Origin: a bacterium
GTDB taxonomy: Bacteria; UBA8248; JACPRG01; G963555815
Length of the DNA stretch: 64,000 bases
Direction: 5' to 3'
NCBI GenBank assembly: GCA_965218795.1
Contig: OZ244653.1
Span: 4,256,001 to 4,320,000, forward strand
Part shown: in pieces, positions 791 through 4,665 of the stretch
Position numbering within the stretch: position 1 is the stretch's first letter
Layout of the letters: each line of letters starts with the position of its first letter
Made by a program: the position numbers and the translations under genes
Notes under the pieces: generated by a model
The model's database searches: none
What the model was told of the DNA's origin: nothing
Seen by the model: only the letters and a program-made list of their open reading frames with translations

Positions 791-1176
791 ATGGATTCCT
801 GCTGTCGCCTGTCCCCGAAGGTTTCTATCGGGGGCAGGAATGACCAACGACTCAGACAGTGCGGAATTCCCACACTTTCGTCGAACTCCCCCTGTCCAAC
901 CCTTTTGATTGTCATTCCCGCGCAGGCGGGAATCCAGGATGCAGGGGCGGCGCCCCTACACCCGCCACAAGGACTCCTGCGGAACCTCCCAACCCGTCAT
1001 TTCCGTTGGCCTGCCCCCGAACGTTTCAGTCGGGAAATGGATAATGGATTCCTGCTGCAACCTGTCCCCGAAGGTTTCTATCGGGGGCAGGAATGACCAA
1101 TCGAAGTCGCGTGGAGCCCCGCTCGTCATTCCCGCGAGGCTTGTCCTCGAGTGCTTGAGTCGGGGAGCGGGAAACC
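791..1176. repeat. Cluster of REP-like palindromes (GTCATTCC...GGAATCC type, several with a nested hairpin, plus one GTAG-type)
   Basis: 791-847 and 1044-1100 are direct repeats (54/57 identical). 911-936 GTCATTCCCGCGCAGGCGGGAATCCA, 996-1040 and 1125-1176 are opposite-orientation relatives. 941-959 GCAGGGGCGGCGCCCCTAC is a GTAG-type REP on the minus strand. Confidence 0.85.
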
Positions 1177-1369
1177 GGATTGGCCGGATCATAGCGGTCG
1201 GTGGCGAGTGCTTCCGTCGCGCCCCGCCGATTGACACGGGCGGGAGGCGCTCGCCATGAATCGGTTGAAGTCCGAATTTCAAGGTCTCGATGGATGCCGT
1301 TATGGCTCATTGAGTCATGGGCCGCGGGTTCCCCAGGTCATGAGAGGCGAAGGTCCGAAACGGAAAATG

Positions 1370-1378
1370 TGCTATATT
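1370..1378 (+). promoter_or_regulatory. Candidate extended -10 promoter for the AhpD-like pair
   Basis: TGcTATATT about 97 nt upstream of ATG 1475; no clear -35. Confidence 0.4.
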
Positions 1379-1474
1379 GGAGGCGCTCATTCTCCCATGG
1401 AAGGAGCGCCTTTCGAACGATGTGACCCGTTCTTCTCATGATCGGGAGTGGCGAAACGAAGGGAAAGAACTCTC

Positions 1475-2110
1475 ATGCCGAACATCACAATGCTGGACAT
1501 CGAGGACCTGGAGAGCACAAAGCTCGGGCCTTTTATCAAGAAGAGTCTCAAGCACCGTGCTCCCGACCCGGCTTTTCACGCGATGATGGGCCACAACATC
1601 GAGCTGACCCAGGCGATGTTCATCGCCTGGGGGACCGTCTTCAATACCGGGAAGATCGACCACAAGCTGAAAGAGATCATTCGCGTGCAGTTGTCCCGAA
1701 TGGTCGATTGTAATTACTGAGGCAACGTCCGGTCCGCTTCGGCGAAGCGGCAGGGGCTGACGGAAGAGATCATCGATGAGGGAATTGAAAACTACGAGAA
1801 GAGCGATCGATTCACCGAGGCCGAAAAACTCGCCCTGCGCTACAGCGAGTGGATGGGCGACGACCCGGGAAAGATCGATGCCGCCTTCTACGAAGCGCTG
1901 AGGAAGCATTACACCGAAGAGGAAATCGTCGAGCTGGGGGTCTTCATCGGCTTCAACGTCGGCTACCACACCTTCTTCGGGACCCTCAAATTTTATCCCA
2001 TGTTCGACAAGGAGGGGAACCTGGTCAGTCAGGAGGAGTCCGCACGGGTGTACGGATGTCGGCCCGTTTCGCATCTGAAACAGCCGGAAGAAGCGGCCCC
2101 CGTCGCCTGA
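1475..2110 (+). CDS. AhpD/carboxymuconolactone decarboxylase-like selenoprotein, CxxU motif (C79-N-Y-U82), 211 aa
   Basis: ORFs 1448-1720 and 1853-2110 share a frame and are separated only by TGA 1718-1720. Read-through gives DHKLKEIIRVQLSRMVDCNY-U-GNVRSASAKRQGLTEE...FTEAEKLALRY...LRKHYTEEEIVELG, colinear with the downstream paralogue. SECIS-like hairpin follows the TGA. Confidence 0.85.
1718..1762 (+). promoter_or_regulatory. Bacterial SECIS-like element downstream of in-frame UGA
   Basis: Perfect 7-bp stem CCGCTTC(1734-1740)/GAAGCGG(1744-1750) with GGC loop 20 nt after the UGA; lower stem CGTC(1726-1729)/GACG(1759-1762). Confidence 0.75.
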
Positions 2111-2142
2111 TTTGTCCTGACTTCGCTCGAGGAGTGAGCCTG

Positions 2143-2745
2143 TTGCCTCATATCGATCCCGTCCGCCCGGAGGATGTCCGGGACCCCGGTTTCTCCGAGA
2201 TTCGCAAAACCTGCGAAGAGCTTCAGGTGCCGGATGACCTCTTTCTGGGCATCCTCGGTCACGTGCCCGGATATGCAAAAGCGTTGACGGATGCCATGAT
2301 CGAATCGCATGCGAAGGGGAACGTCGACCACAAGCTGAAGGAGATCATCCGTGTCCGGCTCGCAAGAACGGCCCAGGATACGTATTTCGCCAATCTCCGA
2401 TCGCGCGAGGCGCAGGCCGAAGGTCTGACGGAGGAGAGGGTCGAGGCGGGGTCGGGGGATTTCGAGAACGATACCCGATTCACCGAGGCCGAAAAACTCG
2501 CGCTGCGGTATGCGGACTGGATGTATCGTGGTGACCCGAAGAAGCTGGACGCCGCCTTCTATGACGAGATGAAAAAGCATTTCACCGAAGCGCAGATCAT
2601 GGAACTGGGCTCCTTCATCGCCCTTCATTACGGGATGCAGGTGTTTATGCGCACGCTTCGGGCCTTCCCCGCGCGCGACCGCGAGGGGAACCCGGTCGAT
2701 CAGAACCAATCAGAAAAAATCTACGGCTCCGAAGCCGGGCGGTAA
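2143..2745 (+). CDS. AhpD/CMD-like paralogue lacking the redox motif (DTYF in place of CxxU), about 200 aa
   Basis: GAGGAG RBS 2129-2134, TTG start giving MPHIDPVRPED (cf. MPNITMLDIED); shares DHKLKEIIRV, GLTEE, RFTEAEKLALRY, DAAFY, ELG, EGN with the upstream gene. Confidence 0.85.
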   Translation: MPHIDPVRPEDVRDPGFSEIRKTCEELQVPDDLFLGILGHVPGYAKALTDAMIESHAKGNVDHKLKEIIRVRLARTAQDTYFANLRSREAQAEGLTEERVEAGSGDFENDTRFTEAEKLALRYADWMYRGDPKKLDAAFYDEMKKHFTEAQIMELGSFIALHYGMQVFMRTLRAFPARDREGNPVDQNQSEKIYGSEAGR

Positions 2746-2921
2746 CTGAAGGGCAAGGTCCGGACCGGTTGTCCATCGCCCCCTTGAGGGATGTGTCGAG
2801 GTTTGCGCGGACAATGCGGCCGGCCCGAGAGTTTCCTTGCGCCCGGAGCTGCGTAGAGGCATGAGAGGGGCGACATCGATTGACGCTGGTGACCCAAAGC
2901 AGTGGAGAAGGAGGTCCTCGC

Positions 2922-3524
2922 ATGGCGGAAGAGACAAAAATTCATGTGCCGGGCGGAGAGGGAAGGGCGTTCGAAGCCAAGGCCGGGCAGGTCGTTGCCG
3001 TGGTGAATCTGGAGGGAAAACAGGTCGCGGACTTCTGGGCGTTCAACGCAAAGAATTTCGATGAGCCCCTCGGTGCCAACCATACGGTGGTCCACATTGG
3101 AAGACTGTTCCCCCAAGTGGGGGATGAGCTGCTGACCGATATGCGGAACCCGATCCTGGAAGTGACGCGGGACGATTGCGGACGCCACGACATGATGATC
3201 GCCGCGTGCGACATTCGACGCTATGAAATCTACTACAACGTCTCGGGCCACCGGAACTGCATAGACAACGCCCTGGAGGCCCTCGCCTCCAGGGCGGTCG
3301 AGCGCCGCCAGCTGGCCCAGCCGATCAACCTGTTTCAACACATGGGTTACGGCGACGACGGGAGCCTGGAGTTCCGCGAATCTCTCGCCCAGCCGGGCGA
3401 CCGGATCGTATTCCGGGCCTTGATGGACGTGGTCGGTTGCGTGTCCGCGTGTCCGATGGATCTGAACCCGATCTCCGGAGGCAGGATCACGGATCTGGAA
3501 ATCCTGATCTCGGATTCCGCGTAA
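2922..3524 (+). CDS. DUF1989 / urea-carboxylase-associated family protein
   Basis: AAGGAGG RBS; motifs EGKQVADFWAFN, GRHDMMIAAC, HRNCIDN, PINLF, PGD...RALMD...SACP. Confidence 0.85.
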   Translation: MAEETKIHVPGGEGRAFEAKAGQVVAVVNLEGKQVADFWAFNAKNFDEPLGANHTVVHIGRLFPQVGDELLTDMRNPILEVTRDDCGRHDMMIAACDIRRYEIYYNVSGHRNCIDNALEALASRAVERRQLAQPINLFQHMGYGDDGSLEFRESLAQPGDRIVFRALMDVVGCVSACPMDLNPISGGRITDLEILISDSA

Positions 3525-3918: not shown

Positions 3919-4665
3919 TTACCGGCAAATGCGTCCTCCGTTCACCAGGTAGGTTTGACCGGTGATGAAGCCGGCCTCGCCGGAGACCAGGAAGGCAACG
4001 AGGCTTGCGACGTCCTCGGGCTGTCCGAACCGGTCCATCGGGGTCTCGGCTGCAACGGCCTCCTGAACTTCGGGTCTGAGAAACCTGCCGTCGCCGATGC
4101 CCGTCGCGGTCGCTCCGGGACAGACGCAGTTCACGCGAATCTCCGGGCCCAGATCGTGCGCCAGCCATTGGGTCATGGATATTCGCCCGCTTGCCGAGAT
4201 GTGGTAGGGGAGGGTTTGGTATTTCGGTTTGAAGGCCAGCTCCGATCCGGTGATGACGATCACGCCTCCGCCCGCTTGCCGCATTCGCGGAACCGCCTCC
4301 CGCGTGCAGTAGAAATGGCTCTTCAGGTTGACGGCCAGAATCTGGTCCCACAACTCGTCGGTGATGTCCTCCAGCTTTGGAGCGGGGATTGCGATCCCTG
4401 CATTGTTCACCAAGATGGAGAGGGGGCCAAGGGCAGCGTCCACCTCCCGGAAGAGGGATTCCACCTCATCTTTTCGGGAGACATCCCCCCCGACCGCAAC
4501 CGCGCGGACGCCAAGCTCTTCAGCCTTTCGTGCGCCCGCTTCCGCCCGTTGCCGACCCGTCTTGTAGTGAAAGGCCACGTCGTGCCCGTTACGGGCGAGT
4601 TTCAACCCGATGGCCTGGCCGATACCGCCGCTCGCCCCCGTCACCAGGGCGACCTTTCGCTCCAT
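3919..4665 (-). CDS. Short-chain dehydrogenase/reductase (FabG-like fold), atypical active site YxxxA
   Basis: TGASGGIG, NNAG, RVNCVCPG, ITGQ motifs; catalytic helix reads PYHISASG. Confidence 0.9.
   Translation of the reverse strand: MERKVALVTGASGGIGQAIGLKLARNGHDVAFHYKTGRQRAEAGARKAEELGVRAVAVGGDVSRKDEVESLFREVDAALGPLSILVNNAGIAIPAPKLEDITDELWDQILAVNLKSHFYCTREAVPRMRQAGGGVIVITGSELAFKPKYQTLPYHISASGRISMTQWLAHDLGPEIRVNCVCPGATATGIGDGRFLRPEVQEAVAAETPMDRFGQPEDVASLVAFLVSGEAGFITGQTYLVNGGRICR

Follow-up and report, generated by a model that had tools for sequence, protein, structure and literature searches.

A predicted selenoprotein of the carboxymuconolactone decarboxylase/AhpD fold, encoded across a conserved in-frame TGA next to a paralogue lacking the redox residues

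The window analyzed here, a stretch of 64,000 nucleotides of bacterial DNA, carries on its forward strand at positions 1475-2110 a frame of 211 codons that runs from an ATG (1475-1477) to a terminal TGA (2108-2110) and contains a single internal stop, the TGA at 1718-1720. The first-pass annotation, made from the letters alone, had proposed that two short ORFs form one frame broken by this codon only, and direct reading and translation bear this out. As it had also proposed, the internal TGA lies in a CxxC-type motif: positions 1709-1720 read TGT AAT TAC TGA, that is C79-N80-Y81-U82 with TGA written as U, and the read-through product of 211 residues includes M-V-D-C-N-Y-U-G-N-V-R. The stretch after the TGA is indeed free of stops, with 129 sense codons before the stop instead of the 130 first counted. 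A GTG is found 6 nt past the internal TGA, at 1727, and a SECIS-type apical hairpin occupies positions 1734-1750 of the same strand.

Directly downstream on the forward strand, positions 2143-2745 encode a paralogue of 200 aa with a TTG start and a TAA stop. It shows 42% identity to the read-through product across 196 residues with one gap, in agreement with the colinearity noted earlier for this intact neighbor. The paralogue lacks both redox residues, having D-T-Y-F where the first gene has C-N-Y-U. A GAGGAG at 2129-2134 (forward strand), 8 nt before the TTG start, may act as its ribosome-binding site. The pair is followed by a DUF1989 gene at 2922-3524 (forward strand; PF09347, 167.5 bits) and, on the reverse strand, by a short-chain dehydrogenase/reductase gene at 3919-4665 (PF13561, 184.8 bits). 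Upstream of the pair lies a direct repeat of 57 nt, with two copies at 791-847 and 1044-1100 that are 95% identical and 253 nt apart, in a stretch whose six-frame ORFs look like noise. A scan of positions 1000-3000 for promoters and terminators returned no promoter-like sites and two terminator-like sites, against 2.0 expected, and is thus uninformative.

Analysis of the read-through protein with profile models places it in the carboxymuconolactone decarboxylase (CMD)/AhpD fold. The Pfam model PF02627 (CMD; cut-off 23 bits) covers residues 51-106, across the TGA, with 37.1 bits, and the protein passes no other curated model. In NCBIfam, every selenoprotein model touched scores below its curated cut-off, with 61.5 bits against 310 for NF053654 ('YciW-related (seleno)protein') and 19.1 against 110 for NF041047 ('GSU3128 family (seleno)protein'), and lower scores than required were also obtained for TIGR01926 (peroxidase-related enzyme; 30.6 against 81.8) and the TIGR00778 AhpD core (18.9 against 27.8). 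Although NF053654 and NF041047 are the best NCBIfam matches and represent curated selenoprotein/Cys families of the same fold, their scores are far under the cut-offs. As judged by these scores, the orthologous group lies outside all curated NCBIfam models and is a sister group of the two families, not a member of either.

The best matches among solved structures are the PA0269-type CMD proteins 2o4d, 2ijc, and 7xw1 (E 2.5e-7, residues 61-160), in which the segment C-A-Y-C-V-N-M-H aligns with C-N-Y-U-G-N-V-R of our protein. The alignment therefore puts U82 on the second Cys of the CxxC motif and R86 on the motif His. In AhpD of Mycobacterium tuberculosis, the catalytic motif is E-x11-C-x-x-C-x3-H. 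The Glu of this motif has a counterpart in E67, which lies 11 residues ahead of C79 in keeping with the AhpD spacing, and both residues are kept in all 30 aligned sequences. The His three residues after the second Cys is absent from all 30, which carry an invariant Arg86 at this position. PA0269 of Pseudomonas aeruginosa and its relatives (2o4d, 2ijc, 7xw1; Atu0492, 2gmy), as well as the debrominase Bmp8 (6ohi), are Cys-type proteins of the CMD family; unlike the protein described here, these proteins have Cys instead of Sec and His instead of Arg, measure 145-165 aa, and lack the N-terminal 60 residues.

We compared the TGA column across three sets of orthologues. In a set of 41 related genomes, including the genome of origin, 36 have a match at the level of an orthologue (E <= 9.4e-62), each with exactly one internal TGA, while three have weak matches only and two have none; TGA stands at the Sec column in all 20 loci examined from these relatives. 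A scan of genome contigs confirmed 108 relatives, and the best 80 of the 108, with labels of Rhodospirillales, Burkholderiales, Xanthobacteraceae, Acidobacteriota, Nitrospinaceae, and Tectomicrobia, all carry TGA at this column (65 recognized by pattern and 15 read directly). A metagenome scan confirmed 366 relatives, of which 80 were examined; 10 of these are cut by contig ends, and the 70 that include the column all have TGA. In total, TGA is present in 170 of 170 readable loci from relatives, metagenome-assembled genomes (MAGs), and metagenomes, with slight overlap between the sets (the first 100 loci represent 95 distinct genes). The first-pass annotation had suggested asking whether homologues carry Cys or TGA at this position, and among these 170 loci no TGC or TGT, and hence no Cys-form orthologue at the DNA level, was found. 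The orthologues span 68-100% ungapped protein identity. The N-terminus MPNITMLD with its initial Met is kept in 30 of 30 aligned orthologues, and the codons after the TGA stay open and conserved, with a mean column identity of 75% in the same number of orthologues. Of 98 orthologous genes whose end lies within the locus, 66 terminate with TGA, 23 with TAG, and 9 with TAA. TGA is also the ordinary terminator of the gene in the window, so the codon has not been reassigned.

This conservation bears directly on the possibility of a pseudogene, in which a recent nonsense mutation or a sequencing error would have struck a formerly Cys-carrying gene. A single substitution suffices to turn TGT or TGC into TGA, and the first-pass annotation had remarked on other decay in the window. 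However, the same column holds TGA in every readable locus from distant taxa, and the 129 codons that follow it have remained open and conserved in sequence.

The RNA downstream of the TGA provides a second line of evidence. CCGCUUC (1734-1740) pairs with GAAGCGG (1744-1750) around the loop GGC (1741-1743), confirming the perfect 7-bp stem described in the first-pass annotation; the distance of 20 nt from the UGA given there applies to the loop, whereas the stem starts 13 nt after it. The supporting lower stem that had been described, GUCC (1727-1730) with GGGC (1754-1757), is present in the minimum free energy fold of the window, spanning 1727-1757, but is particular to it: RNAalifold retains only the upper six pairs as the consensus structure of 86 sequences, and we do not count it as belonging to the element. 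The earlier statement that the paralogue offers only a 4-bp stem at the equivalent position proved too loose, as this stretch has other weak folds, including a 6-bp hairpin further 3'. In bacteria, the range used by bSECISearch for SECIS elements places an apical loop with a G at 16-37 nt from the UGA, and the G-containing loop GGC at 20 nt lies within it. The SECIS of Escherichia coli fdhF, which acts with SelB, is likewise a coding-region hairpin within a few tens of nt after the UGA with a G in its apical loop; it differs from the hairpin described here in its stem sequence and in having a larger loop with a bulged U, compared to the small apical loop of 3 nt (GGC) in the window. An Rfam scan of positions 1300-2900 with E up to 1 gave no match, and Rfam is not known to include a bacterial SECIS model.

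Judged by itself, the hairpin is no more stable than expected by chance, with z-scores of 0.12 (61 nt) and -0.56 (43 nt) and with 50 of 200 shuffles folding as well as the hairpin segment. Single-sequence folding was therefore set aside as uninformative in this GC-rich DNA, and it is comparative evidence, not its own stability, that raises the hairpin above chance. In an alignment of 86 distinct segments of 60 nt, each beginning at the TGA, 98.3% of the cells of the 7-pair stem are paired; sliding the 3' partner by one to three columns lowers this to 28-63%. Pair 18/32 is C:G in 55 sequences, U:A in 21, and U:G in 10, and never C:A; pair 21/29 is U:A in 84 and C:G and U:G in one each; pair 19/31 is G:C in 82 and G:U in 4; and pair 17/33 is C:G in 76 and unpaired (C·A) in 10. 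Compensatory changes from C:G to U:A in 21 sequences and from U:A to C:G in one, with G:U intermediates, represent few independent events because the sequences share ancestry and may have spread by lateral transfer. The observed covariation score was reached by none of 500 shuffles. Several of the changes that keep a pair replace a residue of the protein (R to Q, K to R, R to W). A G·G mismatch interrupts the stem in one metagenome locus (L151).

The synonymous sites provide the strongest test and give a concordant picture. Over 42 conserved four-fold-degenerate codons in 95 distinct orthologues, the median entropy of the third position is 1.33 bit, and values below 0.1 bit occur only at codons 88 (GCT in 94 of 95), 89 (TCG in 95 of 95), and 90 (GCG in 95 of 95), all of them in the hairpin. 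Codon 87 switches between C and T in step with its pairing partner, and free variation (1.33-1.91 bit) is seen on either side, at codons 83, 85, 86, and 94. Frozen sites together with covariation are selection on the RNA. The conserved TGA, the compensatory changes, and the frozen synonymous sites together exclude a recent nonsense mutation or a sequencing error, and we consider the pseudogene reading extremely improbable.

The genome of origin (5.17 Mb) contains the machinery required for selenocysteine insertion. All four genes that the first-pass annotation had proposed to look for are present: selB (386.7 bits) and its neighbor selA (565.8 bits) both exceed their cut-offs, selD was found with 319.1 bits, and the tRNA-Sec scores 72.1 bits and is called by ARAGORN as tRNA-SeC with the anticodon TCA. 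The selD gene (G000:C1:5147448-5148413, reverse strand, outside the window) has one in-frame TGA of its own and therefore probably encodes a selenoprotein form of SelD. None of the three outcomes that the first-pass annotation had named as refuting its proposal applies: the machinery is present, close homologues carry TGA and the hairpin instead of TGC or TGT, and a sequencing error is excluded.

Two further CMD-family genes of this genome, both outside the window, carry a C-x-x-TGA motif: T-C-N-N-TGA-I-G-H at G000:C1:1018246-1018539 (forward strand) and G-C-L-H-TGA-I-D-L-H at G000:C1:3004290-3004652 (reverse strand). Each has a stretch after the TGA that, judged by eye, could form a hairpin, and the two are probably further AhpD-like selenoproteins. 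The related genomes G003-G040 contain many more weak CMD-family matches with one in-frame TGA apiece, which suggests a lineage rich in AhpD-like selenoproteins. In BSepDB, genomes labeled Nitrospinota or Nitrospinaceae (its group UBA8248) appear among the richest selenoproteomes (PMC13326102).

Database records of the family reflect the difficulty of calling such genes. A protein search gave 302 matches at E <= 0.001, and 107 of the 120 matches listed start after the TGA column, mostly with M/V-R-S-A-S-A-K at the first GTG. Starts just past an in-frame TGA are typical of selenoproteins that have been mis-called. The expectation of the first-pass annotation that standard callers would split the gene is borne out by these 107 relatives, which lack the part before the TGA. 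NCBI labels such pieces of 122-131 aa 'carboxymuconolactone decarboxylase family protein', and the JGI label of relatives is 'alkylhydroperoxidase family enzyme'.

The same records could be read as a real stop with two products, an N-terminal peptide of 81 aa and, after a restart at the GTG at 1727, a protein of about 126 aa, with the hairpin serving translational coupling, pausing, or mRNA stability. The prevalence of the downstream piece in annotation and the presence of a GTG 6 nt past the TGA would fit such an arrangement. Several observations speak against it: the CMD domain match crosses the TGA, the stop coincides with the second redox residue of the family motif, and the genome keeps a full Sec machinery. 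Selenocysteine decoding would be expected to yield just such a stop, conserved at one codon of a redox motif and followed by a hairpin at the distance of a SECIS, and we regard two separate products as very unlikely.

The 13 listed relatives that do span the column comprise seven with W, one with C-V-F-C (P0025), two of the paralogue type, and three that are garbled there. The seven full-length proteins with W (P0005-P0009, P0012, and P0019) would fit a TGA read as an ordinary amino acid, be it Trp, Cys, or Gly, through suppression or a deviant code. They are confined to contigs of 806-1319 nt, and none is encoded in the DNA of the 180 loci screened; W at the Sec column is presumably the output of a caller using a TGA=Trp table. 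Reading TGA as an ordinary amino acid is further contradicted by its use as the terminator of this gene and of two-thirds of the orthologues counted (66 of 98), by carriers that include Proteobacteria, which use the standard code, and by the chemistry, since a Trp in a CxxC redox motif would make no sense. Such a reading is exceedingly improbable. P0025 may be a true Cys form, although it is known as a protein only and its DNA was not found among the 180 loci; that it is the one possible Cys form among the 13 column-spanning proteins listed argues likewise against decay of a Cys-carrying gene. The absence of a Cys orthologue from the loci read at the DNA level points to a function that needs selenium.

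Taken together, the Sec machinery, the conservation of the TGA, the constraint on the hairpin, and the alignment of the motif support the selenoenzyme of 211 aa postulated in the first-pass annotation, and we are highly confident that positions 1475-2110 are one gene for a predicted selenoprotein of the CMD/AhpD fold. The UGA at 1718-1720 would be decoded as selenocysteine by SelB and Sec-tRNA(Sec), with SelB recruited by the coding-region hairpin at 1734-1750, whose loop lies 20 nt past the UGA. The residues C79-x-x-U82 would form a redox motif at the CxxC position of the family. The enzyme most likely cycles between a selenol/thiol and a selenenylsulfide state and most likely acts as a reductase of a peroxide, a disulfide, or another electrophile. 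From the gene order and the fusions described below, the Sec protein may be expected to work with the product of 2143-2745, probably as a heteromer with one active site.

The association of the two genes is conserved well beyond the window. In 97 of 100 loci, the gene immediately following the Sec gene, in the same orientation, is of the paralogue type, and two of the three exceptions are cut by a contig end. All 56 paralogues caught by pattern have D-x-x-F in place of the redox motif, and D79, Y81, R86, and S87 are invariant in 30 aligned paralogues. The two genes are separate in the 100 genome loci, and they are fused in 18 of the 120 listed database relatives, proteins of 276-352 aa in which a variable linker rich in Pro, Ser, and Ala joins what follows the TGA in the Sec protein to an entire D-x-Y-F domain. 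Some of these fusion proteins are encoded on contigs of 18-314 kb. The metagenome locus L141 contains a whole fused frame at the DNA level, of about 423 codons, in the order M-P-N-I-S..., C-V-Y-TGA-G-N-V-R, linker, and a D-R-H-F domain. Tandem order together with fusion is classical evidence that both products act together. We propose the paralogue as a non-catalytic partner, and gene order and natural fusions suggest a heteromer of the two proteins with one selenium site.

Nothing beyond the two-gene pair is conserved in the neighborhood of the 180 loci screened, and the gene neighborhood was rejected as a clue to function. The DUF1989 gene follows the pair in only three further loci of this set, the closest to that of the window (L028, L029, and L047, with L028 and L047 at the same contig coordinates), and the short-chain dehydrogenase/reductase gene is not linked to the pair elsewhere in it. 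At least 15 other loci have, upstream of the pair and in its orientation, an ORF that resembles class-III aminotransferases by eye, for example at L032:2-1459 (forward strand); it is absent from the window.

AhpD-like CxxU selenoproteins had been cited in the first-pass annotation as a known class, and they have been in print since 2005. The published accounts, available to us in part, describe a CxxU 'AhpD-like protein' (COG2128) and a 'CMD domain-containing protein' (PF02627) as selenoprotein families of the Sargasso Sea (Zhang, Fomenko & Gladyshev 2005, PMC1088965), and the GOS data contain 299 sequences of 'AhpD-like 1' and 70 of 'AhpD-like 2' (PMC2398784, Table 2). Both families are listed in a 2026 review, where the AhpD-like protein is tied to TIGR01926 (PMC13188914), and in BSepDB, according to which such genes are usually truncated in annotation (PMC13326102). 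The gene described here shares with the AhpD-like family (COG2128), as described in those accounts, the all-helical AhpD/CMD-type domain, a Sec at the second CxxC position, a coding-region SECIS just past the UGA, and a size of about 200 aa. It differs in its score on TIGR01926, well below the cut-off, and in the Arg that replaces the motif His. Whereas 902 Cys homologues are recorded for AhpD-like 1 in the part of the GOS study available to us (PMC2398784), the group studied here has no Cys orthologue at the DNA level in the loci readable at the column. With the CMD domain-containing or 'AhpD-like 2' family it shares the passed PF02627 cut-off and the CxxU motif; that family is defined by the Pfam domain alone in the available portions of its accounts (PMC1088965, PMC2398784, PMC13188914), and the comparison is one of descriptions. 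A tandem or fused D-x-Y-F paralogue found no mention in the available portions of the published AhpD-like family accounts, and a search of the literature returned no prior description of the pair of Sec-CMD gene and paralogue.

The result is an annotation rescue, a new and uncurated member of an established kind of selenoprotein, which adds a widely spread predicted redox selenoenzyme and leaves the existing knowledge of Sec decoding unchanged. A selenoprotein-flagged model for the orthologous group would repair hundreds of records. Novelty, of a mild degree, is confined to the obligate, inactive-looking paralogue and its natural fusions to the Sec gene. Tentatively, and with slightly less than even confidence, we extend this to a strictly Sec-dependent branch of the AhpD/CMD fold that would function only as a heteromer of a CxxU subunit and a D-x-Y-F pseudo-enzyme subunit, fused into one chain of about 420 aa in some lineages. 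If true, this would be a single-site selenoenzyme, its Arg in place of the motif His would hint at a substrate different from the peroxides that classical AhpD handles, and the near-identical hairpin in the lineage of origin, in Proteobacteria MAGs, and in one Acidobacteriota MAG would reflect lateral spread of the cassette. The inactive paralogue and the fusions provide a concrete hypothesis on how AhpD-fold selenoproteins are built.
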